From: Amoebophrya sp. A120
Lineage: Eukaryota > Protista > Dinoflagellata
Length of the DNA: 64,000 bases
Assembly (NCBI GenBank): GCA_905178155.1
Contig: CAJINV010000006.1
Location: forward strand, 2,892,658-2,956,657
Direction of reading: 5' to 3'
The position numbers and the translations under genes are program-made. Position 1 is the stretch's first letter. Each line of letters begins with the position of its first letter. Below the pieces are notes generated by a model, which had not been told where the DNA came from, searched no databases, and worked only from the letters and a program-made list of their open reading frames with translations. Shown here in pieces: positions 6,201 to 34,100 of this stretch.

Positions 6201-9200
6201 CAAGAAGGATGCCGAGGCCAGACCAGTCAACCAAAAGGATATATCTTTTCAAAGATATATTTTTTTCAAACGAATACTTTCGCAATATTTTCGCCAATTC
6301 TTTGCCTTTTTTATGCTTTTGGTTTCTCTTTTTCTTATTCTTTTATTTCTTTTTTCTTTTCTCTTCTTTTCCTTTGTATTTCTCCTTATCTTCGTCATCT
6401 CTCCGTCCTCCCCTATTCAAGTGAATATTTTCAATCAAACGAATATTTTTCGTGTTCTTTCTCTCCGAGCTCAGATAGATGGCCCTTTCGTATGTTGTAG
6501 GTACCCTTCGCGTACTGGGTGCCCTTCGTGTACTGGTTCACATGCAAAGTGAAAATCTTTTTATGAAACTTATTCAGGTTCATTGACGTTTCCCGGGGCT
6601 TAGTAGACCGCATGGATGTCGTCCTGAAACGGCTGCTAGGAATTGCAAGGAATCTTCGATCTGGACGTCTGGAAGGTGGCTGCAAGACTTGTCTCAGGCA
6701 GTGATTTTGCATGAAGTTTACGCGTGATGTCTGTGATGTATGCCGTAGCATCTACTTCTTCGCGGATCTTGATGTGAGGAACTTATCTGGTAACCAAAGC
6801 GTGCGCAAGCGCCGCTCATCCATCACAAACGCAGCGCGAAGGCTTTGCCGTTGCCATATGGGAGGGACTCGAGAGTATGCAAACACTCGCAAAATCGAGC
6901 ATTTCCCAGTGTGTTTTGCCTTCAGAAAGCGGATCGGGCAGAATTTGAGGGAGTTTTACCGAAAGCAGCCAAAACAGCAATTATCAAGCGGGGAGAGCGT
7001 AAAAAAGAGCAGTTTTATTGCTCCGCCCGGTCTGAATCTGAAAAAAGATAGTGGCATTTTCGGCAAGGGCCGATGGTGTGATGCGTTTTATAGCGGAAAG
7101 TGCGTCACTTCCGGGCAGCTTCAGTCGCTTAAAAATTAAAAAAAAGGGCTTAAGAAGTGTGTTTTTTCACAGCATGCAAGCGGGCGACAAAATTTACCGA
7201 TTTTCTCCAGTCCCCGGAAGACGCTTAGAAATTGAAAAAAAACACGAAAAAAGTTACATTTTTCGCAGCGTGGAAGCGGCCGACAAAATTTACCGATTTT
7301 CTCCAGTCCCCGGAAGCTGCTTGAAAATTGAAAATGACAATTTTTGCTGAAAAAGCAAAAGCCGCTTACAAATTGCCGCTCCAAGACGGTTTTTCAAATT
7401 GTCACACGGCCCACACCGTCGAGATTGGAAGAAAAAATACAGCTACTAAGCCTGTGGAGGTGTGTCACACGGGCACGGTTTTCGTCCTCTCTGAGGGTCG
7501 CGACATGAGATCCCTCCTGCTTGGAAATGCCCGATCTGGGTGGCCCAAAAGGGCAGCCGGAAATGAAGAAAATTGCATCACTTTTTGAAATTCGTGTCTT
7601 TTACCTGGCCAGCGCGCCCCCGTGCGTAAGTAACGTTATGCGGGACGGTATAGTGGCCTCCAGAACAGGCTAGCGGTATACGGGCCAGGCGGCCAGTTTG
7701 TCATGCAGGGGCTAGAACGGATGCCCCGCTGCGAAATAGCAAACCGGATTTCGCCTTCAATGCTTATCGCAGGAGCCTGCGGGCCGCCGCGGGCGACAGT
7801 AGTTGTCCGCGGCCCTTTAGGGCCGCGGGGAAGTGATGTCTGTGATGCATGCCCTAGCATCTACTTCTTCGCGGATCTTGATGTGAGGAATAATTCCTGA
7901 TGCCCATACCGCCTGAGAACAAAAACTGCACCTTCTGCGTAAGTAGCAATTCGAATTCTCGTGCCCCTGGTGGAGCTGCTTGTTACGCGGCAACAAAACA
8001 AATTTTTGTAGAATCGAAACGCAGGAGCTGCATAATTACAACAAGTTTATTGCTGCATCCAAATGTCGTCCAGACCCAGATCGATTAAGAATTTGCAATG
8101 CATAGCTGCATATGAACTGCAAAAGTATCGTACTCGTATAAATGCATTACAAATTTTATCAGCATGAGAAATAAAATTTGTAATGCTGATTTGCCTTGAC
8201 AAAGAAATTTGTAATGCAAGACCTCGTTCGTCCCAAAGCCTCGCCATCGAGTTCGTCCCAAAGCCTCGCCATCGCTCTCAGAGCCTTCAAAACCTGTCCA
8301 GCCAGTGGATCCATTAAGCGGTCGACGAAATTGATACAACTAAGATCAGCACAGGAGCACTCAGGCAGATCACGAGGCAGGGTGAGGAACTTACAGGATC
8401 CCAAAAAAAAAAAATATACTAAGCAGGTAAAGACAAGAGGCTAAGAAGATCGAGCCCATCCAGATAGAGAAGCCCGGAGACGATCCAGACCAAAAAAAAA
8501 AAAAAAAAAAAAAAAANNNNNNNNNNNNNNNNNNNNNNNNNNNNNNNNNNNNNNNNNNNNNNNNNNNNNNNNNNNNNNNNNNNNNNNNNNNNNNNNNNNN
8601 NNNNNNNNNNNNNNNNNNNNNNNNNNNNNNNNNNNNNNNNNNNNNNNNNNNNNNNNNNNNNNNNNNNNNNNNNNNNNNNNNNNNNNNNNNNNNNNNNNNN
8701 NNNNNNNNNNNNNNNNNNNNNNNNNNNNNNNNNNNNNNNNNNNNNNNNNNNNNNNNNNNNNNNNNNNNNNNNNNNNNNNNNNNNNNNNNNNNNNNNNNNN
8801 NNNNNNNNNNNNNNNNNNNNNNNNNNNNNNNNNNNNNNNNNNNNNNNNNNNNNNNNNNNNNNNNNNNNNNNNNNNNNNNNNNNNNNNNNNNNNNNNNNNN
8901 NNNNNNNNNNNNNNNNNNNNNNNNNNNNNNNNNNNNNNNNNNNNNNNNNNNNNNNNNNNNNNNNNNNNNNNNNNNNNNNNNNNNNNNNNNNNNNNNNNNN
9001 NNNNNNNNNNNNNNNNNNNNNNNNNNNNNNNNNNNNNNNNNNTTTTTTAGCGCACCTTTATGATGGCCTTACTGTTGAAAGGATGGAGGGAGTTAAGTCA
9101 GTTTTTAGAACCCAGTCTGTTTATGCTAGCAAAGGGCTAGTGCGCTGTGGACCCCCAGGATCAGGTAGACGAGGTCCCAGACCGAAGTGGTAGGCGCTTA

Positions 9201-10853
9201 GGGTGAACTATGTATGTAGCGCTTAGGGCCCTTCCGTACGGCCAATTTGTATGCCCGCAACGGGGTTCGCCTAAGTCGGTCATTTATATGCAAGGCGTTG
9301 GGTTACCCGGTCGGCAGAGCCGATCCACAACGAACGAACGAAGACCTGCATTTATACGAGTACGATACTTTTGCACAGCATACTGCAGAGAATCGTGCCC
9401 CACCGGCCCGGCGTGGAAAAAAACCTCACCAAGGAGGAAAAATTCTTCCTGTATTACAGTGAAAAATGCCCCCACCCCCAAAGTTGCAGAAATTTGTGAT
9501 GCGAAATTTTCAAATGAAAACTTTTTGCCATGCATGAAAGGAGTATGAATCTTTCTGATGCAGAGTCTAGGCGTGTATCGCATCGCTTGCATGACAAGCG
9601 CCGCTCTTGCCGGGATCTTCTGCAATACAAACCTTTGCGATTCACGATTGGAAATCTGTGATGCTGATAGATGCAAGAGGGCGAATGTTTCTATTGGAAA
9701 GGTTTGCAACACAAATGCTCCCAATTTCGGGGGTGGGGGCATTTTTCATTGTAATATCCTGGTGCCGCAGTTTACCGACAAAGTCCCACTCTATGGAACG
9801 ATTGCACAACTCGCTCACTTGTTCTCGAGGCTTTGTCTATTCATCTTCCATTTTCTAATTTATTAGATTTACAAACGGCGACACGCAGAAGCAGAAGCAA
9901 CTAAAGAATTTTTTTTGCAACGGCCTCATCTGTAGTCGTGTGCAAGATGACAAATGCTATAAATGCATCATCAAAAATGAATAAAAAAGAGAGCGAAAAA
10001 ATAATCCGGAGGAGTCGTTGTGCAATTTCATACCCTCGGCGTGCCCTACGGTTTCGGGCGGATCGCGATGCAGAAATCAAAGGGCTACGACAGGAACTTT
10101 CAACCCAGATTCGACGAGCTCCGTCGTTTGGGCGGCCTCAACCAGGAGATCTCGCAGGCGAAGGCACTGTATCCTGTGCAAAAGTTGTATATATCGTACT
10201 AGTATAAACCGCATGACAAATTTCTCAGCGTGATGAAAAATGGAACTTGTAATGCGGATTTAGGTTGAGAAAAATATTTCTCATGCGTGACTGCGATTAA
10301 TAGTACGAGGTGCGATACGACTTTTGCAATGCATAGACTGCTATCCTGTGCAAAAGTATCGTACTCGTACAAATGCTAACGCAAGTCTTGCATTACAAAT
10401 CTTGTTTCCAAGGCAAATCTGCATTACAAATTTTATTTCTCATGCTGAGGAAATTTGTAATGCATTTATACGAGTACGATACTTTTGCACTGGATAACTG
10501 CGGATGAGTCGGAAGAAGAAGAAGGGCGTTGCGGTATAACCCGCTCAGCTGTTACAATCTCAAGTGTTACAATAGAATATGAAAATCTGTGATGCAAAAC
10601 ACACATGGCCTAGCCTACTCCCACAGCATTGCGCATGACAAGTTCTGGAGTCCCAAACTGCACGAGAATTATGTGGCGAAATTTGTAATGCAGAAAGTGG
10701 AACGCTGTGCGGGTCTGTCATGCTCATCATGCAACACAAAATCCAGATTCTATTGTAACGTTTGAGATGGTAACCAATTTGAGCGGTTCATATGCGGGGG
10801 AAATCACGGTGCTTGGGGAGGGAATTGGTGGTGGAAAGGAAAATTTGTACTGA
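210..10853 (+). CDS. 3' part of a multi-exon gene: EF-hand-like motif plus coiled-coil tail, probably the C-terminus of an ion-channel-type protein (5' end lies upstream of the window)
   Basis: Removing the TAT..ATA elements at 1, 278, 6637, 8111, 9452, 9792, 10170, 10342 and 10535, plus a large intron (~643 to ~6598, boundaries uncertain), gives ...ELAVEEFIGACMRLKGEAKSKDSFIVQLSVIQATEKIEFLGKTTER-LVDRMDVVLKRLQRIVPHRPG...VPLGVPYGFGRIAMQK...ALRMSRKKKKGVAGEITVLGEGIGGGKENLY, ending TGA 10851-10853. EEFxxxCMRLKGxAK resembles the post-S6 EF-hand region of dinoflagellate channels (recognised from memory, not searched). Confidence 0.65.
708..2281. mobile_element. Old GC-rich intronic insertion with subterminal inverted repeats
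   Basis: IR GTCAACGACGCTTTT(T/C)TCAAGTATGCTGA(A/G)AATTTT at ~798-833 versus ~2183-2218; flanking direct repeat TTACTTAATA at 698-707 and 2282-2291. Boundaries are uncertain. Confidence 0.55.
2468..6540. mobile_element. 4.07-kb non-coding insertion flanked by an 80-bp target duplication
   Basis: 2388-2467 equals 6541-6620 (1 mismatch). Perfect 16-bp asymmetric subterminal IR CCAGTACACGAAGGGC at 2493-2508 and 6521-6536; hairpin at ~2629-2664; internal degenerate repeats. Confidence 0.85.
3875..5285. repeat. Dispersed degenerate repeat: A/T tract followed by CGCGCGCTGCGCGCGCGCAG(A/G)CGCC, about 10 copies
   Basis: Copies near 3890, 3995, 4060, 4165, 4258, 4390, 4486, 4711, 4985 and 5262. Confidence 0.85.
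6782..7832. mobile_element. 1.05-kb insertion flanked by a 58-bp target duplication, nested in a family A introner (6637-8104)
   Basis: 6724-6781 equals 7833-7890 (2 mismatches). Hairpin CCGCGGCCC-TTTA-GGGCCGCGG lies just inside the right end; internal ~76-bp duplication at ~7160 and ~7258. Confidence 0.85.
8225..9340. mobile_element. Insertion with 7-bp TSD nested in a family B introner (8111-9382); spans the assembly gap
   Basis: TSD AAGACCT at 8218-8224 and 9341-9347; termini CGTTCGT...ACGAACG; poly(A) 8492-8516 precedes the gap. Confidence 0.75.
8517..9042. other. Assembly gap
   Basis: Run of N. Confidence 1.
9452..9756. mobile_element. Introner family C, representative (~305-335 bp)
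   Basis: TIR TATTACA(G/A)TGAAAAATGCCCCCACCCCC; repeat TCCTG/TCCTG. A close reverse-complement copy lies at 20817-21125; others at 28961 and 57968. Confidence 0.95.
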
Positions 10854-12925: not shown

Positions 12926-15900
12926 ATGATGAGCGACCCCCTGGACCACGTTGAGGCAGCAGCGGTCGCCCCCCCGGAGGGGTCGCAAGGTCAACAAATT
13001 CATCCGGGTGCGGCAGTTCTACACCCAGACGAAATTGCTGCTGCCGTGGTTGTATCAAGTGCAAAAATGTCTGGGTCTGGAAGAATGCATGTTTGTCATG
13101 CTTGTCTGGCATGACTCTTAAATCTGTCATGCACTTTTACCCAACAGCTCCATTTTTCTGTGATGCAGAAACGCAGTTCGTCATGCAGAATAGGCAACAC
13201 CTAGAAGCTCAGATGAAACTTGTCATGCTAAGCCAGCACTTGTAGTTGCCTCATCATGAGACGCCGCCCAGCATCACAAGTTTCCAGACCCAGACATTTT
13301 TGCAATTCATAGGTTGCTGATGTGGAGTCCGACACTGAGTCGACGACGAGCTCCGTCTATGCAAAGAAAAAAGTGTTACAGTACGTATACACATTGTGTA
13401 GTTCTTGCAAGACCGGTAAGACAGTAAACCTTTGTCATGCACGAACTGCTTTCGAATTCGAGGCTTGTTTCATATTCACGCGTGTTCTTTTACCATCTCT
13501 GAATGGCAAGTTTTCTCTGTCATGCAGAGATGAAAATTTGTGTCTCTACTGCATGTTGTAATTACAACAAATGTGTACCTACCTGTAAATGCACGTTTTT
13601 CGCGGGATACTGTCGTGGACCAAAATTCCCTACAAGTGGATATGAACTGCAAAAGTATCGTACTCGTATAAATGCAATACAAATTTTCCCAGCATGAGAA
13701 ATGAAATTTGTAATGCTGATTTACCTTAAAAGAAGGATTTGTAATGCAAGACTTGCATTTATACGAATACGATACTTTTGCACAGGATAGTGGACCACCA
13801 CCAACAACTTCATGTCCCCATTATCAAATGCAAAAATGTTTGGGTCTGGAAACTTGTGATGCTGAACTGCGCATGATTGAAGCGCTTCCAATGGCAGCCA
13901 AGCATGACAAGTTTTTGAGAGGCCTGCTGATGCCTAGCACGCATTACAAATTGCGTTTTTGCATGACAAAGAAAGCCTCTGTTTTGCTGCTCATGCAACA
14001 CAGATTTTCCACGAATGCATGACACGCATTACAAGTTCCACTTTTCCAGACCCAGACATTTTTACATTTGATACCCATTCTCGGTGGCGTACAAGGCAAC
14101 AGCCACTCTCTCAACGACACACTGGCGCAGTCCCGCATCGACACGGCGCGATTGCTGGGAAGCCGCGGCTTCGTGTTCCCCCCAGCACCAGGAACATCAA
14201 ATGGGGCAACTGCCAACGTGGTGGACGCAGGACCCGGAGGCGCAAATTTGGCCGGGAATGGCGGGTCCGGGGCACCCACGCCGTTTGGGGCCAACGATTA
14301 TCGTTTTTTCGCGAATAATTCCGCAATGACCCACCTATTACCGGAGCACATTGAGGACGATTTTTTGCGGTTGCAGGCTATGCGAAGAAAAATCTGTTTC
14401 ACTGTGGTGATTTTGCAAGATCTGCATCACAACTTTGTTACACATGACAAAGAAATAAACTTGGCATGCGTGCTTCCTAAAAAGGGAAATAAACACAACT
14501 AGAAATAGAATGTGTTTCATGTGTAGCAAGACAAACACATTTGCGTTGCGTTCTATCATGCATCACGAAGTTTACAGTGAAACAGTTTTTTCTTCCCGCG
14601 ATACAGGCGGAACAGAAAATTTTAGAGACCGTGATGCGCGAGAACAGGCGGCTTGAGGACGAAATGCTGTTCTATCGGGACAGAACCAAGGATCTACTGG
14701 AACGGGAGAAAACGTATGTTAATGTGATTCTGTTTCCACCTTTGAGAAGGTTCAAAGACCAAGCTTTGAATTTCGCTTATATGGTGCTGATGCTGTGCTG
14801 CTGTGTAAGACAGGACATGTCATGTTGTCTCGCATCGTGGTCCACCAACCGCGCGACAACGACAAACACACATGACGAAATAAATCAGGCTTCGCATTTC
14901 CCAGATGGAAAACCAATCGAAGGCGGAAGCGCTGGAATCGTCCCGGGACCAGGTGTATCCAATGTAAATATCGTCCTTGAATCTAGTCGGGAAACTTGTA
15001 AAGTGCTCAGTTGCAAGCCCAGCATGAGAAATTTAATATTCGCGCGGCTTCAAACATATTCTTGTTTTGCTTTCCGCATATGAAACTGCGTTTTTGCATG
15101 ACAAGAAAACGGTCAACATCCCTTCTTGGACACGCAACACAAACTCTTCAGTCATGCGAGACACACACGCCAGCGTGAGTACAAACATTTTATCCTTCGA
15201 GACCACCCAGATCGGTATTTGCAATGCATAAGGTTGCCGACAACTACGGCAAAAAGCTCTTCAAGCTGGAGCGGCATTATCAAATGCAAATATGTCTGGG
15301 TCTGGAAAAGTGCAACGTTTGTCATGCACGTTTTGCATGACGCGTGAGGTCTGTGATGCATGCCCTAGCATCACAGATTCTGTGAGATCTTTTCCATGCC
15401 TTTTCCGCATGGATGAGAAACTGCCTCTCGGCCTTCTTAAAAATAAAAGTGAACAGCTTTATTGGTAATCACGCAACACAGATTTTTGCATGCTTCAGAT
15501 TTAGCATGACAAGTTGTACTCTTCCAGACCCAGACACTTTTACACTTGATAGGCATTTGGCGAAGACGAAATTCGAAAACAAGCAACTGAAAACCGAGAT
15601 GGTAATTGCGCAACAGCATGTGTTATCCTGTGCAAAAGTATCGCACTCGTATACGTATTGCAATCATGCATTATCTTGAGGTAGATCAGCATTTTACAAA
15701 TTTCATTTCTCACGCTGAGGAAATTTGTAAATGCATTTATACGAGTGCGATACCTTTGCAGTGGATACGTGTATGAGCAGCAGGAGTTTTTTGAAAAGCA
15801 CATGACCAGCATGGAGGAGGCGCAGGAAAGAGAAAGCAAGGACAAGAAATATCCTAAGCAAAAACGTCCCCACCCCATAGTCAAGTTGGGAATCTAGCAA

Positions 15901-18900
15901 CACAAATCTCCAAGCTTTGGGGACTGTACATGACAAGTTTCCCTCTGCAGTGTAGTTCTGATTGGCAAGATGAGCCGCATGAGAAAGCCACTTTCACATC
16001 CTGTTTACAGCATTACAAATTCCAAAACACGATTGGAAATCGCTCTCGTGGACGAGCTGCGCATTCCAAATGTTCCTGTTACTGCGCATTTGCATGACAA
16101 CTCTGGTGTGGGGACGTTTTTACTCAGGACAAAAAACTTCTGAAGGAGCAAGCGGAGAAGGCGGAGCAAGAAAAGCAGAAGCTCGACGCGGAAAAACAAG
16201 TTCTCTCCACTGACCTCGTTCTGATCGACAAGAAAAAGAAGGAGGAAATCCTAGCGATGAAAAAGGACTGCGTATCAAAGTGAAAATTCCCCACCCCATA
16301 TTCAAAAGACAACTTGTGTTGCTGGATTTCTGTACACAAATGAACTTTGTACTGCAGCAAGAGCTTGCGCTTGTCGGCATATTCTATCTGAGCCCATTTG
16401 GGTACGCATCCGGCAAGCAGCTGAGCATGCGAAACAAGTCTGACATGGGCGAAATCGCATGACAGACTCGCTGCACAATGCGCCGCATGGGTGCCGTTTG
16501 CCTTGTACGCAAGACAAAGCTGATTCGTGGTCACAAATCAGCATCACAAATTTCCTTTTCGATATGGGCAGGGGGGATTTTTCCTTACGATACTGCGAGG
16601 ACCGGCTAGAGACCTTGACCAAGGAACTCACCGCCGAAAAGACGGCAGAGCTCGAAACCCTGAAAGCAGAACTCACATTATGCTATGTAAAAACGTCGCC
16701 ACGAACCCATAGTCAAGTTGGGGAATCGGCTAGACAAATCCACAAGTTTTGGCTGTTTTGCATGACAGATTTGGAGTCGTAGTGTAGTGCTATTTGCGGT
16801 AGTTTAGCAGCGTCACAGATCTGGGCCATCATACTGATTGGAGCATGACAAATTCCAAAACACGACTAGAAAGCGCTTCGCATGGGGCTCCGGATGAGAA
16901 ACATGCTTAGCATGCAGATTTGCATCGCAACTACCAACTATGGGATGGCGACGTTTTTAAATACGATACATACACAAACTCGCAGAAGAGACCACTCGAG
17001 CGGAAGCGCAGCTCGCGGAGGCGGAGCAGGCACACGCGGCCCACCTCGAGAAGTTGACAACGGAACACGAGCAAGCCAAGCAGGAGGGGATCGAAGCAGC
17101 GCAGGCGCAGTGCGAGGAGCGGTTGGCCGGGGAAAGGGAGGTATTCAGAAGAGAAAAGGAGAAACTGCAAGAAGACCTGATCGAGGAAAAACAGAACGCA
17201 GACATAAAAATCAACGCACTGCAAGTGGAACTGACCGAGAAGAATCAGAATTTTGACCAAGCGTCCATCGAAGTCGAGCAACAGATGCTACAGTTCCAAG
17301 AATATTAAATGCAACAGCATCGTACTAGTATACTACAAATCGCATGACAAATCTCCTCAGCATGAGAAATAGAATTTTGTAATGCGGACTCAACTTGAGA
17401 AAGAAACTTGTAATGCATGAATGCGATTAGAAGTACGACTACGATACTTTTGCACAGGATAAAGAACAGGTGCAGCAGTTGCAGGACGAGAAGCAGTTTT
17501 TGCAAACGGACTTTGACCAGTTGAAGTTAGACTTGGAAAAAGTAGCAAATGCAAAAATGTCTGGGTCTGGGAGATTGCGATATATGTCATGCCAGTCTGG
17601 CATGACTCTGAACTCTGTGTTGCATGGCCGCGAAGAGCTCCGCCTCCCTGTCATGCAAAAACGCAGTTTGTCATGCGGAATAATACGCAACTCAGAACCA
17701 TGAAACAAATTTGTCATGCTTGGCAGCGCATCACAGTGAATTCACTATTCCCTTTCTTGCGTCACAAGTTTCCAGACCCAGATCGATATTTGCAATGCAT
17801 AGAAAGCCGAGTCCGACAATGCGCAGGAAAAGATTCTGTTGGAGAACGAGTTTGAGCAAAAGCTGGAGCGGTCCCTGGGCGAGGAGCGGAAAAAGCTGGA
17901 ACAAAAGGTATGACCTGCTCAAACGTTACAATCTCAAACGTTACAATAGAATCTGGATTTTGTCTTGCATGAAGAGCATGAGGAACGTATGTGGAGTTGC
18001 GCCTTTCGCAATACAAATTTTGCCGGATATCGATGGGGTTTTAGGTGCCGAAACTTGTTGTAATGCGCAAACCTATGGGAATACGGTAGATCATGCACTT
18101 CCTGCATCACAGATTTCCATATTCTATTCGTAACGTTTGAGATTGTAACAGCTGAGCAAGTTATAAAAGGTAAGCCAGATTGAGTCGGAGTTCATGCAGC
18201 AGTTTGAGATGAAAGAGCATATGAACTGCAAAAGTATCGTACTCGTATAAACGCATTACAAATTTCCTGAGCATGAGAAATCAAATTTGTAATGCGGATA
18301 TACGTTTAGAAAAAAATTTGTAATGCATGATTGCAATTACTACGAGTGCGATACTTTTGCACAGGATAGAGCAGGAAGCGCTGGACCTGCAGAAGGAGCT
18401 GGATTTGGTCAACAAGGAGTGCAACGAGCTGAAGGAAAAGGTCGATAGCATGGAGGTCGACAAAACGAAAGAGTTCACCCATATGGAAGTGTCAGGATTG
18501 AAATCGTCAAAGTTGAAAAGATTTGTAATGCATAAAACCGATACCAGATGGAAGCCCACTTATCAAGCGCCGCGTGACAAATTTTCCGAGCACGGGAATC
18601 AATCCAAGTTTTCATGCTGTTTCGGCACAGGAGACAGCTTTTGTCATGCTACTTTAGCAGCTCTGTCCCAAACCCTAGACAGGCTCACAATCGGCCTCAC
18701 TTGCCATCCCTGCAACACAGGCACCTCATGCTTTGCATTTTATGCATTGCAAGTTATTTCAACTTTGTTGATTTCAAACCTGACGCTTCCATAGCCCAGG
18801 AAGACCTCGAAAAGCGGATCGCGGAGGAAAAAGAACAGTGGGAAATTATCCCGAGCAAAAACGTCTCCACCCCATACCCATTTTGTGAAAATAGCGAAGT

Positions 18901-21900
18901 TTCTCTGTGCTTTATTTTGGTCTTTTCCAGTACATAAACAAACACAAAGTCAAGATAGGGAATCTTCTGTTAGACAAATCCGCAAGTTTTGGCTGTCGCG
19001 CATGACAAGTTTGGGCTCGTAGTGTTAGTCGTAGTCCTATTGTGATTTAGCTAGTGCAACCGCGTCACAACTCGGTCACCTTATTCTGATTCCAGCATGA
19101 CAAAGTCCCTAATAGCATTAGAGAATAGTCCTCATGGGGCTGCGCACGAGAAATGTTTTAGACTTGCAAACTTGCATGACAACTCTGGGATGGGGACGTT
19201 TTTCCACAGGATAGAAATGAGTCGGGCCATGGAGGACCAGGCGAAGCGGGACAACCTCGAGCACCTGGAACTGAAGCACAGCGGCGAGATTCACCAGCTG
19301 CAGCAAGAATTGCAGCGCGCGAAGGAGTATCAAATGCAAACCATGTCTGGGTCTGGAAGGATGCAGAGTTCTTTGTCATGCTTCGATCTGGCATGACTGA
19401 GGAGTATGGTGATGCGTGTCCCAAGAAGAGACCCATGCTCGTGCCATGCAAAAAGAAACGCAGTTTGTCATGCGGAAGCCGGAACATATAGGCACGAAAA
19501 TTGTACTTCCCATGCGTGGCTGTGCATTACAGAGCACTCACTAATATTTCCAACTCAGCATTACAAGTTTCCAGACCCAGACATAGATATTTGCAATGCA
19601 TAAGGAGGAAGGGGCCGCGAAAGTGTCGCAGTTGGAGCAGCAATATCCTGTGCAAAAGTATCGTACTCGTATATAGTGCAAGCCTTGCATGACAAATCTT
19701 TTTCTTAAGGTAAATCCACATTACAAATTTTATTTCTCATGCTGAAAATTTGTAATGCATTTGTACGAGTGCGATACTTTTGCAATTCATAAGCAACTCG
19801 ATTCCCTGCGCCACGAGCGGGAAGCGCAGGAGAGGGCGTGGCAAGCGGATGCCCAAGCGTCGCTCGAGCGAGAGGTGGCTGCGGAAGTTGCGAAGGTGAA
19901 TCAACAGCACGAGGAACTCCTCACACGAACTCTGGCCGAAGAACGAGAGCAGACGCAGCAGCGCGTCACCGCCTATGCATTGCAAGAGTATCGTACTCGT
20001 ATAAATGCATTACAAATTTCCTCAGCATGAGAAAGAAAATTTGTAGTGCTCATGTACGCTAAGGAAACGCATGATTGCAATACGAGTCCGATACTTTTGC
20101 ACAGGATACCGCCGAGCTGACGGAAAAACTCGACGCAGAGCTAAACGAGAAGCAGCAGCAGCTGACGCTATCGCACGAAAAAAGTGTTACAGTTACACAT
20201 TGTGTTGCAAGACCGGCAACACAGACAACCTTTCTCATGCAGGAAATGCTTGGGAATGGGAGCCTCGTTTCCTTCCTGTTTTCCCTTATGATCTTCGCAT
20301 TACAAGTTTTCTCTGCCACACAGAGAAAATTTGTGATGCAGAAACTCCAACAAATGTGTGACTGTAACACTTTTTTCTCATGATAGACGCAGGCAGTGCA
20401 GTACTACGAACTGGCCTACAACCAGAATCTTATCAAATGTAAAAATGTCTGGGTCTGGAAAGTTGGAACTTGTGATGCTAACTTTGGACTCTAAAAAAAT
20501 CTGTATTGCATGACCAGCAAGAGGAGCCACATTTGTGCTACGCGAGGAGGGCATTTGTCATGCGGAAATGGCATCAGGAAGCTTTCCAAAAATCTGTGAT
20601 GCTGGGTCATGCATTACAAGCATCATGGGCCATGCCAGACAAGCATGACAAGCCTTCCATTCTTCCAGACCCAGACATTTTTACACTTGATAAATCTGGA
20701 GCTGCAGCAAAAGCTGCAGGAAGCGACGGAGGGTTCGGAAAAGCAAAAATTGGATACGGAAACAACGGTGCGCGAACTGACAGCACAGTGCGAGCGGGAG
20801 AAGCAGGACTTGGAAGTATTACAATGAAAAATGCCCCCGCCCCCGAACTTGGGAGGATTTGTATTGCAAACCTTTCCAAATGAAACATTCGCCCTCTTGC
20901 ATCTATCAGCATCACAGGTTTCCAATCGTGAATAGCAAAAATTTGTCTTGCAAAAGATCCCAGCAAGAGCGGCGCCTGTCATGGAAGCGATGCGATACAC
21001 ACCTAGACTCTGCATCAGAAAGATTCATACTCCTTTCATGCATGACAAAACGTTTTTATTTGGAAACTTCGCATCACAAATTTTTGCAATTTCAGGGGTG
21101 GGGGCGGGCATTTTTCATTGTAATAGGAAGCAAGGCTGCGGCACGAGCTGGGGGAGAAACACGCCGAGCAGCTCGAAAAACATACCAAATGCAAAAATGT
21201 CTGGGTCTGGAAACTTGTAATGCTAAACGTGAATGGAAGACGCACTGCAGTGCGCAGCTATGCATGACAACTTTTTTGGCTGCCATGTCTTACGTATTAC
21301 GCATGGCAAACTGCGTTTTTGCATGACAGGCAAGAGGGCCTTTTCGCGCCTATGCAACACAGATTCTCGAGCCATGCCAGACAAGCATGACAAACTTCCA
21401 TTCTTCCAGACCCAGACATATTTCCATTTGATAAAACAGGCCCAGGAACAACAAATCGCCCTCCAAGAACAGCAACGGCGTGATGCGGAAGCAACGAGGG
21501 CTAGTGCCACGACTCTAACTCCCGAGCAGCGACAGGAGCTGGAGGCGGAGCTGCGTGCGGACTTTGAACAGCGCACAGACGCTATTCGGGCCGAAGAGAG
21601 GGAACGGGTCGAAAAAGAAGTCGAAGCGAGGGTGCGCGAGGAAGTGGAAAATAGTACAATGCGGACGCGGCAGGCCGAAGAGCTTGAGGCACTACAGCAG
21701 AAGTTGCACCATGCGGAGCACATGCAGCACATGCTGGAAGGCGAAAAGCACGAGTTGTTGGAGAAATTTGAACGACAAAACGCGGAAAGCCTGTCACCCA
21801 ACAGCAAGCAGGAATCTTTGTTGCAAACTCTGCAGCAGCAGTTCGACCAGGAGAAGGACGAGCTGCTGAAGCAGGCACAGTATCCTGTGCAAAAGTATCT

Positions 21901-24900
21901 GGTACTCGTATTGCAATCATGCATATACAAATCTTGGTCTTAAGGTAAATCAGCATTACAAATTTTATTTCGCATGCTGAGGGAATCTGTCGTGCGATTT
22001 CTACTAGTACGATACTTTTGCAATGCATACGCAGCGGGACTTGCTCGTGAGGGAAGAAGAATGCGAGAAGAAACTCGAGGACCTCCGACGGCAATTTTCG
22101 GAGGAAATGAGTGCGATAACCAAAAATGCTGGCCAGCAGCAGGACGCTGACCGCCTCGCGGACAACCAAGAAACCTTGGCCAGGGTTCAAAGAGAAAACG
22201 CCGTCTTGGTGGAGCAGAAGGAACAGCTCGAGACCGCGTTGCGCGACCTGGAAGGCTCCGCCGAGGCTAGAATTGCGGCCGTCGAGAAGGAAAAAGAGGA
22301 AGCGATTCGGGTCGCGAAAAACCGGAGCCCGGCACGGGATGAAAGTGGTGCCTCGGCCGGTATCGCAAGGAAAAACCTTCCCTCCCCATACTCAACCGGA
22401 GATTTGTGTAGCATGATTTGTGACCACAAATCCTTTTGTCATGCTAGAGGGGAAGAGATGCGTACTGTAGTGCTAGCATGCGTAGGAAAGCCTAGCGTCT
22501 TCAGCATGACAGGAAGCAACCGGAAACGGGAAACAGCATGACCAATTGCCTACAAACGAGGGAGCAACTGCGTCTCTTGGCCTTTTAGCAATACAAGTCG
22601 ATATGTGTACTCAACTACAGCAACACAAAATTTGTTTTCGATATCGGGAGGGGGGATTTTTCCTCACAATAGCCGGACTGGCTGCTGCTTCTAGCAGCAC
22701 TTCCAACCCCTCCGTTATTGCGCAATTGGAGCAGCAGCTGCAGGAGCAAGAGCAGGAGAATATGCATTGCAAATATCGATCTGGGTCTGGAAGATTAAAA
22801 CTTGTCATGCTAAAATTTGAACGATGCAAAAATCTGTGTTGCGTAAGTACCAAAAGCTGTCCGGTTTTGACCAAGTCGAGAGGGAGTTTCTGACGCAGGA
22901 AAGGCAGGATAGAAACCTCAAAGAATCTGTCATGCTGGATCTCGCATTCCAGACATCATGGGCCATGGAAAACCTGCATGACAAGTCTTGCAACGTTCCA
23001 GACATCCAGGGATAATATTTGCTTTTGATAGAGAACCAGAAGCTGCGAACTGCAGCGAAAACGCTATTGGATATCAAAGTGAAAAAAGCCCCCGCCACAT
23101 ATTGAAAAGATAATTTGTGTTGCTGGATTTGTGTACACAAAGGAACTCTGTATTGCAGCAAGAGCTTGTCTGCATATTCTAAGCCCATTTGGGTACTACA
23201 CATCCCGCTAGTAGCTGAGCATGCGAAACAAGTCTGACATAGGCGAAAACGCATGACAGACTCGCGGCACAATGCGCCACATGGTTGCCGTTTGCCTAAT
23301 GTACGCAAGACAAACCTGATCTGTGGTCACAAATCAGCATCAGAAATTTCCTTTTCGATATGGGGAGGGGGGATTTTTCCTCGCGATATTGGAGGAGAAC
23401 GACGAGCTGAAAGAGCGGGAGCTTCCCGACAACGAACAGATCCAAAAGCTGTACCATCGCAACAAATCAAAGCAGGAGGAGATCGAACTGCTTCGGCTCA
23501 CGATCCAGACCAAAGAAGAGGCCCTGCAATTAACGCTGGAAGAAACGACAAAGTTGCAGTATGCCTCGCTCAGACCGATTTTATAAAAATCTCAACTGTT
23601 GTTCCATACATAGAATCTGGATTTTGTCATCTCGCATGAGCAGCATGAGTACTAAACATATTAGAGAGTCACGACCACCTTGCGCTCATTTATTCCGCAA
23701 TACAAATTCATTGAGCCGAATATTTTTATCCGGCAGTTCTTTGGAGCCCTCGAGCTTGTCATGCGCAATTACTTATCCTGTGCTGGCGGTAGGCTAGATC
23801 GCGCGCTTCTATTATTTTGCATCTTCACAGACCTCCACTTCTATGTCTAGATAGTCTGTAACGTTCGAGAAGATTGTTGTAACATCACTTCTGAGCAGGG
23901 TATATGCAACCGAAGCTCGAGGAGCTGGAAACCGAGAAGAAAACGAACGAGGCGAAAATCGCGCAACTGCGACGCGTATGCATTGCAAATATGTCTGAGT
24001 CTGGAAGGGTGGAACTTGTCCTGCTAAATCCGAATCATGCAAAAATCTGTGTTGCATGAGTGCCAAAAGCTGTCCACTGTCAACCAAGTTGGGAGGGAGT
24101 TTCTCATGCAGGATAGGCATGACAAAGCGAAAGACCTCACAGAGTCTGTGTCATGCTAGGTCCCGCATTCCAGACGAGGCCTCATTGGTCATGGAAAACC
24201 TGCATGACAAGTTTAGACTCTTCCAGACCGAGACACATTTGCATTTCATAACGCGAGTACGCAGATCTGCTGGAGTCTGTATCCAGTGCAAAAGTTGTAT
24301 CGTGCTCGTACTCAACATTGCATTCATGCATTACAAATCTAGTTGTTACAGTAATAAATCCGCATTACAAATTCCAATCTGTAATGCTGAGCCAATTTGT
24401 ATTGCGGTGAAAGAATACTAGTACGATAGTACTTCTGCAAATCATAGTCTGTGCAAGGAAGCAACACGACCTCGACGGACGGAGGACAGACTGCACAGCA
24501 GGGTGGTACTATAGTGAGTATCAAAGTATGTGTGTGCAATGAAGCACTTCTATAGATACTCTTTGTGATGACGACGGGTTACATGGTGGAAGAGAATGAA
24601 TATCGATATTTATTATTTTGCAACGAAATTCCGACTACGTTTTTAATATTTTATTATCGAAATAAAAATCCAGACCTCGTCCAGGAGACGCTGGCGTTTC
24701 AACTCCGCAACAAGTCTATCAAATGTAAAAATGTCTGGGTCTGGAAGAATGCAACTTGTGATGCTAAATCTGAAGCATGCAAAAATCTGTGTTGCATGAT
24801 TACCAAAAGTCGTCCAGTTTTGACCAAGTCGGGCGGGAGTTTCTCATGCAGGATAGGCACGATAGAGATCGCACAGAATCTGTCATGCTAGATGCTGTAT

Positions 24901-26087
24901 TCCAGACCTCGTGGGTCATGGAAAACCTGCACTACAAATCGCGCACTCTTCCAGACCCAGACATTTTTGGATTTGATAAAGTCCAAGGAACTCGAGCACA
25001 TGGAAAAACTGAACAAGAACACGATCGACAAGCAGTATATGCATTGCAAACATCGATCTGGGTCTGGAAGGTAGTTGCTCCTGCCCCTGCTCAGTACAAC
25101 GCAGAATGTGTACTATCTCACCCCTCACCATTGTGAAGGATGGAGATTGATGCAAGTCCTGGGTGGAGCAATGCATAGGTTGTGAAGGATGCAGGTGCAT
25201 AGCGCTGCCTCCTTGTTTTGTCGTGCACCACAAACTGGAATTTTAGCTCACGCACGACTTGCAGTTGCACAGCCGCTCGGAGTAAATTATTTTTCACGCG
25301 TGGCTGCGTCCTGAAGTCAGCTTTTCATGTAAGAACAGCATCACAAGTTTCCAGACCAGAGACAGAGAGTTTATTGCAGTGGATACAGTATGTAACGAAC
25401 ATTCTGCTGAAATTCATTAACGCCGACCCGGATACGGACACCGAGACGCGTATGGAAGCGTCAGGATTGAAATCATCAAAGTTGAAATAAGTAGTTTGTG
25501 ATGCATAAAATGCTAGACGCAAAGTGCCTTTCTTGCCGAGCAGGCAACTGAGGCCGATTATAAGCCTGCGTGGGGTCGTCGTGTGAGATAAAGCTGCTAA
25601 AATAGCATGACAAAAGCAGTCTTCTCTGCTCAAACAGCATGACAAACTGGATTTCCATGCTGCCTTTTTTTTGTCATGCGCCACTTGCAAACTGGGCTCC
25701 AGCTGGTATCGCTTTTTTGCATTACAGAGTATTTCAACTTTGACGATTTCGATCCTGACACCCTGATAACGGGACTGGAGATGGGCCGTTTGCTAGCGGA
25801 GTCGTTGGATTGGGACCGGGCAAAGTTCGCAAACCTGCTAAAGGTATGCAAAAAAAAAATTGTTTCACTGTGAACTTGTGATGCAGAAATAAATGGAACA
25901 CAGAACTATTTGTCTTGCTACACGACCTGCATAGAGCATTGGAGTTTCAAGTGTGTTTTTCCCTATGGGAAATGCGCGCAAGGTAGGTCTTCAGTGTCAT
26001 GTGTAACAAACTTGTGATGCAGATCTTGCAAAAGCATCACGTTGAAACAGTTTTTTCGTACGATAAGAGGCGACGGGGTCCTACTGA
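12926..26087 (+). CDS. Golgin-like long coiled-coil protein with C-terminal GRAB/GRIP-type domain (GMAP-210/Rud3-like); about 38 exons
   Basis: ATG 12926 to TGA 26085-26087. The frame stays open across 35 TIR elements removed with one 5-bp repeat copy; two decayed introns (~14715, ~24519) are unresolved. E/K/Q/L-rich heptad exons are followed by TIDKQYVTNILLKFINAD...LEMGRLLAESLDWDRAK, which resembles GRAB/GRIP Golgi-targeting motifs. Confidence 0.8.
13822..14073. mobile_element. Introner family A, representative (one of the most abundant; ~250-300 bp)
   Basis: TIR TATCAAATGCAAAAATGT(C/T)TGGGTCTGGAA...TTCCAGACCCAGACATTTTTACATTTGATA; direct repeat CCCAT/CCCAT. Other copies include 13053, 15278, 17543, 19328, 20431, 21183, 22761, 23977, 24717, 30245, 40094, 50784, 52975, 53705 and 54433. 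Confidence 0.95.
14379..14603. mobile_element. Introner family D, representative (~200-225 bp)
   Basis: TIR core AAAA(A/T)CTGTTTCACTGT; repeat CAGGC/CAGGC. Others at 25845, 51405, 52109, 58738, 59191, 61310 and 63515. Confidence 0.93.
16273..16592. mobile_element. Introner family F, representative (~310-340 bp)
   Basis: TIR core GAAAAATCCCCCCTCCCCATAT; repeat CTGCG/CTGCG. Others at 22361, 23072, 26409, 29879, 41112, 42094, 47045, 48720, 49111, 55659, 57075, 58350 and 61580. Confidence 0.95.
17909..18165. mobile_element. Introner family I, representative (~255 bp)
   Basis: TIR with tandem GTTACAATCTCAAACGTTAC units; repeat AAAGG/AAAGG. Others at 10535 and (decayed) 23560. Confidence 0.9.
18220..18368. 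mobile_element. Introner family B, representative (~135-190 bp)
   Basis: TIR TATnnnnTGCAAAAGTATCGTACTCGTA; repeat GAGCA/GAGCA. Other copies include 8111, 10170, 10342, 13641, 15624, 17303, 19644, 19974, 21881, 24280, 43554, 54686, 56050 and 63323, in both orientations. Confidence 0.95.
20169..20385. mobile_element. Introner family H, representative (~210-250 bp)
   Basis: TIR core GAAAAAAGTGTTACAGT; repeat GACGC/GACGC. Near-identical copy at 51864; others at 13358, 44099 and 45038. Confidence 0.95.
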
Positions 26088-27340
26088 GTTTGATTGGTTC
26101 ATATGTAAAAATTCCGCGGTACGTTGTGTTAGCAGATGATCCGAGGTTGTAGTATTGATGGGGACAGTCCCGCTTTAGTACTTCTTTACAACCAATTGAT
26201 TCATTGTTGCACCCTGCGGCGCTGCTAGCGTGGTCGCAGCAATCTTCCTTCCGGGAGAACAAGAAGAAGATGTTTGGGGGGAGCAAGACAGAAAACTTTG
26301 TTGACACGACCAAGCGTGAGCTCACTGTTGTAGCGAAGATGATGAACGAACGACCAGATGAGTTGTACACGAAGCAAGAAGCAGAACCATGAAGCACCAA
26401 AAATGAAGTATCACGAGGAAAAATCCCCCCTCCCCATATCAAAAGGAAGTTTCTGATGCTGGATATCCGTATACAAATCAAATTTGTCTTGCAGTAGAGG
26501 GCACCAGGCTCCAACCAAGCCTGAGGAGAGAGCTTTTGGCCTAGGGGCTTAGCATGCGAGACGTCTATGCTGCAGGCCCAACAGCATCACAAACCGCCTG
26601 CATAATGCGGCAGAGCCTGTGGAGTTGTCTTTTTGCAAGACAGACGTGATTTGTGGTCTCAAATCAGCAAGACAAATTTCCGGAAGCATACCTTTCCGAT
26701 ATGGGGAGGGGGGATTTTCCCTCTCAATATGAAAATGAACACTACGATAAACCACGACCCCCGAGGACGTCGTGGTCCTCTTCTAAGGCGGCACATCTGT
26801 CAGCTACCTAATATGAGAGTGCACAACTCCCCCTCCCCCTCATTTGCAGGGCAGGAGCAGCAATACAAACACCAACACACTTGGAGCCTGTGCATGACAA
26901 GTTCACGGGCCGAGTGCAGTACTGTTTGGGCTCCTTCTGAAATTTGTCATGCAAACAGTTTCACAAGGCACCAAATGACTTGGGGACTTTGCGTCACATC
27001 TGAGGGGGAGGGGGATTTCGGGTTGTGCGCAACTGTTATACTCAACACTTACCCCCGGAAGAAGATCATGTTCAGACGTCGAACAGAAAAAAAGAAATAG
27101 AGCAACCGTGGTTAAGTAGACTCGTTTAGCACGAAAGAAAAGTGAAAATAAACCAAACTATTTTCATTTCAATCTATCGACTTCTTCTTTCTTTGCCTCT
27201 GTGCTTCACAGCTCGGTCGTCCTCTGTAGGGGAAGAACGTCTTGCCTACTAAGTGAAAATGTCGTTATTTCGGTAGCTTTTACCTCGTGCAAAATTGATA
27301 AACAGCGACAAAGTACTAGAATAGTGACGTTGCGTCTACG

Positions 27341-32800: not shown

Positions 32801-34100
32801 GTGTATGACTCGGACGTCATACATTATAAACAAACACAGTAAGAAGTCCAATTTAGATTTCTTTGTATCTGACAGTGCAGCAGACACAGAGGTGGGGTAT
32901 TGTTGATGCTCCTGCAAAGTGCAGCGTCGGACAGGCGGCAACATCCCGTGCCAGTATGGAGACAAGAATTGTATGCTGTGCTGAACCGCAGACGAAAGCA
33001 CGAAAGACAAACTCCCTCCTACCTGCAACTACATGCCTCACAACTGCCACCTCTTACTTACGCAGTACTGCGGCACGGCTTCTGCGTGTGCTTGTGGGTT
33101 GTGGCGAAGCGCGCAGCTGTACTAGGTCCAGCATGCCACATGAAAACTGCGCCGGCTTGGCTCCGGGGGTATCAATGCAGCGCGGGAGCGTTTTTTACAT
33201 GTTGATAGGCCCAGGCGAAAGTTGCGCGCGGAGCTGCGTAGTGTATTGGGTGGGGCCTGCGGCGGTGGGCACACGATTACGGTGACGTATTCGGATGGGA
33301 GGAAGTACACCGGAAAGGTGGACGAGAGAGGCGAGCCGACGGGCGACTCGGGCAAGATGGTTTGGCAGGATGGGTTGGAGTTTGTCGGGAACTTCAAGGA
33401 CGGCCAACCGCACGGCAAAGGGACGATGAGCATGCCGGATTTGGAAAATGAAGGTGGGCGGAAGGAGAAGGAAGGGGACGACTGGGGGTATGGAGAGATC
33501 AAGTATCCTAGTGGCAGTAGTTACGTGGGCCACCATGTTGGAATGAGGTATGGCAACGGCACCACAAAACTGAAGTATGGCAGGGGCACATACACATTTA
33601 CGGATGGCAAGAGTGCGTACGAGGGACAGTGGTGGGACGACGAGTTCAACGGCGAGGGCACGTACACGCACGCGAACGGCGACCGGTACGAGGGACAGTT
33701 GACGGGCAACCAGAAGAACGGCAAGGGCACGTTCGAGTGGGCGTTGCTCGGCAAAGTGTACGTGGGACAGTGGAAGGGCGACAAGGTGCAGGGCGAGGGC
33801 AAGCTCACGTGGAACAGCGGCGAAATGTACGAGGGACAGTGGCACGACAACAAGAGGGACGGCAAGGGCGTGATGACGTGGTCCCCCAACAGCGCGGCAA
33901 AAGTAGGCAATTTTGTGGGAACGTGGGTGAATGACATGATCAGCGGCGAGGGCATCCTCACGTGCAACAATGCCAAAAAGACCACCCACGACGGAAACTG
34001 GAAGACGGAAGAAGGGCGCACATTTTTGGTTTCGGGGGAAAATGGCGCTCATGGCGGCGACCTCCTTGAGCTCTGCAAAGAGCCCGCCTCTTCGCAGTGA
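29829..34100 (+). CDS. Multi-exon protein with low-complexity N-terminal region and C-terminal MORN repeats
   Basis: MATTLVDNMPYGENKLVVPEEVEALVPEE... joins in frame across elements at 29879, 30245, 30604, 31511, 31734, 32072 and a decayed intron at 32825-33207 into the MORN exon. The start codon is tentative. Confidence 0.65.
33208..34100 (+). CDS. Terminal exon encoding tandem MORN repeats
   Basis: ORF 33222-34100 has repeated YEGQW.dd...G.G.Y/W..G units (YEGQWWDDEFNGEGTYTHANGDRYEGQ, YVGQWKGDKVQGEGKLTWNSGEMYEGQWHDNKRDGKG). Confidence 0.9.

Follow-up and report, generated by a model that had tools for sequence, protein, structure and literature searches.

The subject of this study is a nine-nucleotide word, GCAT(G/C/T)ACAA, that recurs on both strands inside small elements with TAT...ATA ends in the dinoflagellate Amoebophrya sp. 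A120. The stretch analysed, further referred to as the window, comprises 64,000 nucleotides (nt) of contig CAJINV010000006.1 (assembly GCA_905178155.1, positions 2,892,658 to 2,956,657, forward strand); all coordinates below are those of the window. The range 13053–26065, in which the word had been noticed by an earlier sequence-only reading, is part of a plus-strand gene interrupted by many such elements. The full consensus of the nonamer may be written GCA(T/a)(G/C/T)A(C/g)A(A/g), with TT as the usual continuation, and its conservation and variants mark it, as far as sequence can tell, as a constrained, sequence-specific cis element. Our favoured, though tentative, reading is that the nonamer array consists of double-stranded DNA sites for one trans-acting protein, most probably the mobilising transposase (an integrase-like enzyme or its DNA-binding partner).

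Recurrence of the nonamer

In total, 239 matches to GCAT[CGT]ACAA (GCATBACAA) were found on the two strands of the window, compared with an expected mean of 2.93 (standard deviation 1.88, maximum 8) from 100 shuffles of the window preserving its dinucleotide composition. Ranked by number of copies among the canonical 9-mers of the window, GCATGACAA is first (119 copies), GCATTACAA third (64) and GCATCACAA sixth (56). The claim of the sequence-only reading that the word occurs in both orientations stands, with 119 exact copies on the plus strand and 120 on the minus strand. Alignment of 320 copies of the core GCATNACA, 160 per strand, has G at the centre in 168 copies, C in 79, T in 71 and A in two; the base 5' of the nonamer is G in four of the 320, and the downstream continuation is A/G, A/G, T, T. 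The range 13053–26065 (13,013 nt) contains 67 exact copies.

By self-comparison, 47.3% of the window is repeated within it, and this part holds 224 of the 239 exact nonamers, the other 15 falling in the 33,353 nt of non-repeated sequence. The word had been described by eye as scarce in exons and in GC-rich inserts. Besides the low count in non-repeated DNA, the absence of matches from 13 exons with transcript support (1,509 nt, see below) bears out the former statement, and the absence of exact copies from the insert at 789–2227 (66% GC) the latter.

Elements carrying the nonamer

The nonamer is carried by elements of 130–630 bp that end in TAT...ATA, have terminal inverted repeats and are flanked by a 5-bp target duplication. 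They were collected by a scan for TAT...ATA ends with at least 15 complementary bases among the terminal 22 and a 5-bp direct repeat flanking the element on the outside. Among 259 TAT...ATA inverted-repeat pairs, 84 have a 5-bp duplication matching in at least four of five bases; a control in which the direct repeat was displaced by 7 bases gave 5. Three of the 84 elements were dropped (two longer than 700 bp, one composite), and the 81 that were kept form 16 clusters, nine of which have at least two copies.

Every element of the window opens with TAT; about seven variable bases come next, and then an A-run (near positions 11–15). The ends of the 84 elements fit the formula of TAT, about seven less conserved bases and at least three A, as in TATCAAATGCAAAA, TATCCTGTGCAAAA and TATCGCAAGAAAAAA. 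Past the A-run, each family has inverted repeats of its own. At least one GCAT[CGT]ACA[AG] is present in 79 of the 81 elements and in all 16 clusters, with 204 copies in 20,372 nt, or 10.0 per kb. The sequence-only reading had assigned the word to all of the otherwise unrelated families. Its recurrence across families is confirmed by these counts. The unrelatedness of the families applies to their interiors once the nonamer is masked (see below), but not to the TAT/ATA ends, the A-run and the 5-bp duplication, which are common to all. As the ends and the duplication length are shared, all TAT/5-bp families presumably use one integration machinery.

In most families the first nonamer lies 32–33 or 40–44 nt from the tip of the element. 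A strict ruler measured from the tip was considered and rejected, as the distance to the first site ranges from 32 to 49 nt. Family A is asymmetric: its copies carry the nonamer mostly in one orientation, and they are inserted ten times in the forward and seven times in the reverse direction, with similar numbers of intact sites.

Element ends frequently read TAT-GCATTGCAA-A (for example, at 19974, 23977 and 25038), a variant that differs from the nonamer by a single mismatch. By eye, the common terminal TGCAAAA is similar to the ACAAA half of the nonamer, and the element tip, with TGCAAAA or GCANTGCAAAA, may be a weak copy of the nonamer site.

An insert of 1,439 bp at 789–2227 also has TAT...ATA ends (TATGGTGGCGTCAACGACGCTT and its partner); its inverted repeats measure about 60 bp, and its 5-bp duplication, CTAGT, is perfect. 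It has no open reading frame recognisable by Pfam and seems to represent a different cargo on ends of the same type.

Elements of a related assembly

Metagenome contigs were scanned with a motif-pair pattern, which gave at least 150 loci; among the matches listed, about 141 come from one assembly (JACKZZ01...), the elements of which are 75–92% identical to those of the window, and about nine are sporadic single matches without TAT elements. Since the matches come almost wholly from one assembly with the same families, the scan provides no phylogenetic breadth. In viral contigs there were no matches to the motif-pair pattern or to a family A repeat pattern.

The metagenome loci yielded 244 distinct TAT/5-bp elements, of which 112 contain the search pattern and were set aside. 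Of the 132 left, not selected for the motif, 128 carry the nonamer at a density of 11.0 per kb. Pooling of window and locus elements (one longer than 700 bp was dropped) produced a set of 324 elements in 22 clusters. Almost every unselected member has the nonamer, with fractions in individual clusters of, for example, 62/63, 26/28, 19/19 and 15/15.

Conservation and variants of the nonamer

Interiors of six family consensuses were compared in 15 pairs by local alignment against shuffled sequences. Raw z-scores range from 3.0 to 14.8. When the nonamer, allowing up to one mismatch, is masked, z-scores fall to between −1.0 and 2.6 in 14 of the 15 pairs and to 4.2 in one. The nonamer is the only significant internal similarity between the families, which do not align end to end as simple common descent would have it.

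The most conserved internal 9-column blocks, determined de novo, are mostly nonamer sites (four of the top five in family B and the top five in family A). With the sites set from one copy of a family, identity among the other copies is 0.72–0.87 in motif windows and 0.60–0.72 in other internal windows. Rates of change were compared in six clusters using motif-unselected, non-seed members only; clusters with ten or fewer such members were excluded. Per cell, mismatches to the consensus amount to 0.150 for motif columns and 0.265 for the other internal ones; the terminal 30 nt, with the inverted repeats, have 0.124. Counting singletons against the family consensus proved inconsistent between families and biased in variable columns, and it was replaced by counting private changes relative to the three nearest copies. 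Frequencies of the latter are 0.057 in the motif, 0.087 in other internal columns and 0.050 in the inverted repeats, with the same direction in all six clusters. Shared variants have frequencies of 0.135 in motif columns and 0.243 in other internal columns. Hence, by consensus mismatch and private changes alike, the nonamer does not decay as fast as its neighbours: its columns change at about 0.6 times the rate of other internal columns, close to the rate of the inverted repeats. As the identity of nearest neighbours is only 0.86–0.89, selection on lineages and selection on each copy are inseparable in these counts.

The spectrum of variants was derived from the 213 unselected elements (39.7 kb of interior). 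Exact internal copies number 413 with G (200), C (104) or T (109) at the centre, compared with three with A. Common single changes are T4>A (85), C7>G (86), A9>G (144) and A6>G (38); changes at positions 1–3 number 5–16 each, and at position 8, 26. Transversions account for two of the four tolerated changes, and there are hardly any transitions at positions 1, 2 and 7. Such a spectrum resembles what a reader would tolerate rather than transition-led decay.

Spacing of the sites

For the analysis of spacing, sites were defined more widely, as GCA[TA][CGT]A[CG]A[AG]. Under this definition an element has 3.8 sites on average, and 212 of the 213 elements have at least one. Of 605 spacings between adjacent sites, 350 are 16–18, 30–34 or 47–51 nt. 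In ten family consensuses, 37 of 45 spacings fall into 15–18, 30–34 or 47–51 nt, with 10.8 ± 2.9 in random placements (maximum 24 in 5,000 trials), the spacing ranges having been picked after viewing the distribution of the 605 spacings. Families 3–9 alone give 25 of 30, which is a partial check and not a blind hold-out. The fit is best at a period of 16.3 nt, where the mean cosine is 0.71, compared with at most 0.52 over all periods in 2,000 random sets.

Neighbours in the same orientation peak at 31–33 nt (in up to nine clusters), and inverted neighbours, at 16–17, 34 and 46–50 nt. The same peaks are seen in the window alone, where no selection of elements was involved. The number, order and orientation of sites vary by family, and the spacers are unrelated. 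For these reasons the spacing quantum of about 16.3 nt is a constraint rather than an inheritance.

Strand symmetry and pairing

Relative to plus-strand transcription, 119 exact nonamers are sense and 120 antisense, so the sense-strand specificity of a spliceosomal signal is lacking. Forty-five elements carry both orientations (43.4 expected by chance). One orientation only is present in 34 of the 79 motif-bearing elements, and in 16 this is the antisense one. The sequence-only reading had named an RNA-binding protein marking the intron among possible readers; the absence of strand bias and the one-orientation elements disfavour it.

Opposed copies had further been proposed to form internal hairpins. 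In predicted minimum-free-energy folds, 77% of motif bases are paired, compared with 61% of other internal bases, and the partner of a paired motif base lies in another motif copy in 572 of 1,402 cases. Compensatory changes between paired copies, which a purely structural role would leave, are few. The two centre letters of the end-proximal inverted pair can pair with each other in 22 of 58 elements, with 18.9 expected. In adjacent inverted pairs, covariation at the four variable positions is at expectation for spacings of 30–36 and 45–51 nt; at 15–18 nt there is a modest excess, among copies that are not independent. With this little covariation, and with family A carrying mostly one orientation, internal hairpins do not appear to be the driver. 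A hairpin driver, a branch point and an RNA word of the RBFOX or PUF type were all discarded on account of the strand symmetry, the non-A centre and the lack of covariation.

The inverted repeats behave otherwise. At arm positions 15–32, complementarity to the own arm of a copy is 0.70–0.79 versus 0.54–0.73 to the arms of other copies, and over the terminal 32 nt (window elements and loci L002–L150) the own arms of a copy are more alike than left arms are between copies. Covariation is absent from the first 14 nt in half of the clusters, and the arms of family B differ constantly at positions 4–7 (TATGAAC... versus TATCCTG...). Given that positions 15–32 covary within copies, selection seems to act on the pairing of the ends, as in an RNA hairpin.

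Family A, asymmetric and yet inserted both ways, would present different words to a reader of single-stranded RNA. Strand symmetry, insertion of family A both ways, lack of pairing covariation between copies and the direct spacing of 31–32 nt together favour a reader of each site as duplex DNA. Three helical turns measure 31.5 in B-DNA and 33 in A-form RNA, and the modal spacing is nearer to the former; as evidence this is weak.

Host gene and transcripts

In-silico removal of an element with one copy of its repeat opens plus-strand reading frames of 396 amino acids (across two elements) and 370 amino acids (across four). A long open frame at 33144–34100 (plus strand) encodes five MORN repeats (Pfam E = 1.3e-35) and belongs to a host exon. 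Contigs of 2.4, 3.9 and 4.6 kb from runs X4, X5 and X6, taken as RNA by an automatic guess only and further called RNA-like, join exons by skipping each element together with one copy of the duplication. The joints can slide by five letters, and many elements admit no GT-AG reading of their borders; the transcripts, if RNA, thus lose the elements without GT-AG borders, as published introners do. These statements draw on 15 of 48 joints and on contig pieces, repeat-to-repeat joints in DNA-like runs being left aside. Contigs of runs X1 and X2 read straight across exon-element borders. Three raw-read RNA runs (X9–X11) placed 4, 26 and 18 reads on 20 kb, all of them partial fits, too few for usable coverage of this gene.

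In 19968–24978 there are 14 introns with RNA support. All 13 of the TAT..ATA type hold one to five nonamers, the single GT..AG intron holds none, and neither do the 13 exons mentioned above.

The summed contig depth of runs X1 and X2 over 19500–26499 is tens of thousands over elements versus about 30–55 over unique exons, a difference of hundreds to thousands of times. Although depth is not itself a copy number, this fits very high copy numbers of the families in the source organism.

Comparison with known systems

Introner elements of strain A120 were described by Farhat et al. (2021, PMC7789003). According to the parts of that paper available to us, they carry TAT, seven less conserved bases and at least three A, and are flanked by direct repeats of 3–5 nt; they form non-canonical introns of about 240 nt and number 29,850 in 1,954 families. 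The same source states that the mechanism of their removal is unknown; an RNA hairpin model of these elements has been published. Gozashti et al. (2025, PMC12130899) list 58 A120 families, and the rows seen class them as "TIR DNA, unknown". One supplement row, for family 38, reads "Ginger; 5-bp TSD, TA/TA termini" (TIR, terminal inverted repeat; TSD, target-site duplication), and the text assigns to this family open reading frames (ORFs) with Copia/Gypsy homology, like proteins of long-terminal-repeat elements.

The ends, duplications and borders of the window elements match those of the published A120 introner elements, and we therefore regard them as elements of this known kind. They share TAT repeats, the A-run, direct repeats (here the 5-bp duplication of 84 of 259 pairs), non-GT-AG introns of about 240 nt, a multitude of families and co-oriented genes. 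Terminal inverted repeats with a target duplication of fixed length are those of a TIR DNA transposon or miniature inverted-repeat transposable element (MITE); the 5-bp duplication and TA/TA termini agree with the Ginger-like family 38, and Pfam recognised no integrase-like ORF among 20 from the window and 37 from the related loci. In the available parts of the two introner papers only terminal and direct repeats are described, with no internal nonamer or lattice. More generally, no description of the internal nonamer, its constraint, the non-A centre or the 16.3-nt lattice was found in the literature text covered, figures and some supplements being outside this scope. A literal literature search with four 9-mers returned, among the matches listed, only unrelated sequences (primers and short hairpin RNAs). 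Thus, while the elements are known already, these features appear not to have been described in print. The nonconventional introns of euglenids resemble the A120 elements in their MITE-like origin, terminal pairing, non-canonical borders and duplication-like repeats, and their mechanism of removal is likewise given as unknown (PMC11282704); as far as that source was available, they differ in having terminal CAG/CTG at +4 to +6, and no shared internal word is described for them. A search of the whole window against Rfam 15 gave no matches at the gathering score.

Arrays of short words are familiar from other transposons. The plant elements Ac/Ds (hAT; AAACGG hexamers) and En/Spm (CACTA; a 12-bp motif) and the P element have repeated subterminal or internal sites for their transposases. 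As in the elements studied here, these words are short, lie in both orientations inside the ends and are common to non-autonomous derivatives that are otherwise different; in hAT, CACTA and P elements they are needed in cis for mobility. The duplications differ, being 8 bp in hAT and 3 bp in CACTA elements and 5 bp here, and TAT/ATA ends are neither YARNG nor CACTA. We know of no fixed 16-nt spacing quantum in the hAT, CACTA or P elements. In Mu and Tn7, and likewise with the heptamer-spacer-nonamer signals of Transib and RAG, the duplication is also 5 bp and a terminal element is combined with sites at set distances, the spacing of which matters for assembly of the complex. They differ in their TG/CA or CAC ends versus TAT/ATA here; Mu and Tn7 are prokaryotic, and no homologous enzyme was found by Pfam among the 20 window and 37 locus ORFs.

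Interpretation

A shared cis signal bound by a common factor, as the sequence-only reading had proposed, is supported indirectly by the nonamer being the sole internal similarity of the families, by its slower change, by the pattern of its variants and by the quantum of about 16.3 nt. That a protein binds the nonamer, that it does so on DNA rather than RNA, and that this protein is the transposase, we infer. Under the favoured reading, protomers would sit on the TAT-N7-A-run at the tips and on the site next to it, 32–46 nt inside each end. Further protomers would occupy internal sites, about 31–32 bp apart when in the same orientation (three turns of B-DNA) and about 16 or 48 bp apart when inverted. 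The resulting cooperative nucleoprotein array would pair both ends for cut-and-paste transposition and integration with a 5-bp stagger. Families losing their sites would stop spreading, so that only sites and ends would stay alike between families. The position of the first site, subterminal in most families, is like that of transposase sites elsewhere.

Several observations weigh against the transposase. To our knowledge, integrase-type enzymes bind only the terminal 10–20 bp, and an array over the whole element would be unusual. Pfam identified only host-type domains, with no transposase or integrase, in the ORFs scanned (20 from the window and 37 from related loci); hence the cognate autonomous element expected for a MITE was not seen in these ORFs, and no autonomous element with a nonamer lattice was seen in the window and related loci. 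The insert at 789–2227 resembles the elements in its ends and 5-bp duplication, yet it has no exact nonamer. Depletion of private changes in motif columns also fits purifying selection on each inserted copy, as for a host function. The arms covary at positions 15–32 (p = 0.0005 in four of six clusters), so that the pairing of the ends seems to be under selection and the RNA-level life of the elements to be real. The first nonamer sits at the top of this terminal stem and is present in RNA whichever way the element is inserted. Finally, no transposase was found in A120 in the available part of the published genome analysis (PMC7789003).

Some of these points suit an RNA-level code, in which a protein or ribonucleoprotein of the non-canonical excision machinery would dock on the nonamers, both atop the terminal hairpin and elsewhere in the element, and direct cutting and ligation to the base of the stem. 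The covarying stem is what an RNA hairpin would leave; the symmetry of the ends places the end-proximal pair in RNA for either direction of insertion; private changes are depleted in motif columns; and motif bases are paired more often than other internal ones. All 13 RNA-supported TAT..ATA introns have the nonamer, while the GT..AG intron and the 13 exons lack it, and the single-copy intron at 23555–23904 keeps it. Moreover, the ends are not GT-AG, the mechanism of removal is not established, and the U1 small nuclear RNA was not found in A120 (PMC7789003, in the part available). We nevertheless regard such a code as possible rather than likely: there is no sense bias, 34 of 79 motif-bearing elements have a single orientation, and elements with both orientations are as numerous as chance predicts. 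In addition, internal copies of the asymmetric family A are as conserved as end-proximal ones despite its insertion in both directions, and the tip-to-first-site distance (32–49 nt) follows no single ruler. Sequence-specific reading of duplex RNA is rare, and the direct spacing of 31–32 nt is, weakly, nearer to B-DNA than to A-form RNA. Still less probable is a spliceosomal signal, whether a branch point formed by the U-N-A-C of GCAUNAC or an intronic enhancer like (U)GCAUG; we consider it very improbable. The word AU(G/C/U)AC resembles the loose yUnAy consensus, and the last copy is about 40–48 nt from the 3' end in several families. Against this stand the absence of sense-strand bias, the presence of several copies over the whole element, the lack of GT-AG ends, a canonical intron (24505–24672) without any copy, and a centre that is almost never A, although A provides the best branch context.

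Strand-blind occurrence, the lattice and the variant spectrum would serve equally for a host DNA-binding or chromatin protein that coats the elements for silencing or for co-transcriptional marking for removal, and the lack of a reported transposase in this type of genome (PMC7789003, as available) speaks in its favour. This seems unlikely to us, as nothing is specific to a host factor, the nonamer is nearly absent outside elements, and the constraint on subfamily lineages (shared variants 0.135 versus 0.243) is a prediction of selection for spreading. The nonamer might also have no function of its own, being a relic of the common descent of families or kept only for hairpins of opposed copies. 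The common ends and duplication length do allow shared ancestry, and motif-motif pairing is frequent in the folds. However, masked families do not align, the nonamer changes at only about 0.6 times the rate of its neighbours, the centre is A in three copies and another base in 413, the spacing quantum is preserved although sites differ in number, order and orientation, and paired copies do not covary. This explanation is improbable, and is largely refuted by the results on masked alignment, constraint, variants, pairing and spacing.

A bolder proposal, which we hold to be doubtful but worth stating, is that the lattice serves as an address label for intron removal by a new route that works without the spliceosome. 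A single sequence-specific protein array, formed on each introner element as DNA or as nascent hairpin RNA, would direct cutting exactly at the base of the stem for any border and orientation; the label may have been inherited from the spreading transposase, one code then serving both mobility and removal.

Introner elements make up most introns of this group of parasites and are removed without GT-AG signals, and the mechanisms of their removal and spread await identification. The nonamer offers a first candidate handle on the trans-acting factor, through DNA or RNA pull-down or DNA affinity purification sequencing (DAP-seq), and a family-independent marker for annotation of such introns. The sister strain, the elements of which have different ends, makes it possible to compare a transposition signal with a splicing signal. 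As an address label for removal, the lattice would be an opening into the long-standing puzzle of intron removal; as an array of transposase sites, it would be a variant of a familiar theme and still an aid to finding the missing enzyme.

Individual elements in the range 13053–26065

The family A element at 13053–13311 (259 bp, duplication GGTTG) has exact sites at 13093(−), 13220(−) and 13271(+) and one-mismatch sites at 13124(−, CTGTCATGC) and 13158(−, CTGTGATGC). The sequence-only reading had placed copies in this element near 13094, 13140, 13220 and 13271; three of these are real, the first exactly at 13093, and 13140 is empty, being about 16 nt off. A family B element (149 bp, duplication GTGGA) at 13641–13789 has sites at 13708(−) and 13739(−), and a reverse family A element (duplication CCCAT) at 13822–14073, sites at 13854(−), 13902(+), 13941(+), 13961(+) and 14026(+). 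Each of these two has its own 5-bp duplication, and in 13312–14073 their insertions appear to split a family E-like element that starts at about 13358. Another family B element, at 18220–18368 (duplication GAGCA), has sites at 18253(+), 18287(−) and 18318(−), spaced by 34 and 31 nt.

Further along the gene, several elements are skipped in the RNA-like contigs. They include a family E element at 20169–20385 (duplication GACGC; sites 20297(+) and 20331(−)), a family F element with a C-rich inverted repeat at 22361–22671 (duplication GCCGG; 22436(−) and, relaxed, 22504(+)), and the 350-nt single-copy TAT...ATA intron at 23555–23904, which has no repeat within the window and one exact site, 23756(−). 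For the family A element at 20431–20692 (duplication AATCT; sites 20470(−), 20555(−), 20594(−, relaxed), 20611(+) and 20643(+)) these contigs skip 20426–20692, that is, the element and one copy of the duplication, and no GT-AG reading is possible. The plus-strand GT..AG intron at 24505–24672 (168 nt), with no nonamer copies, served as a control. Near the end of the range, a family C element at 25451–25768 has sites at 25496(−), 25605(+), 25637(+), 25671(−) and 25719(+, relaxed), including spacings of 32 and 34 nt, and a family E element at 25845–26065 has two sites in the same orientation, 25876(−) and 26012(−). Upstream of the range, an assembly gap of 526 N follows a poly-A tract at about 8445–9000, within family B-type ends at 8111–9382 that are flanked by the duplication CTGCA.

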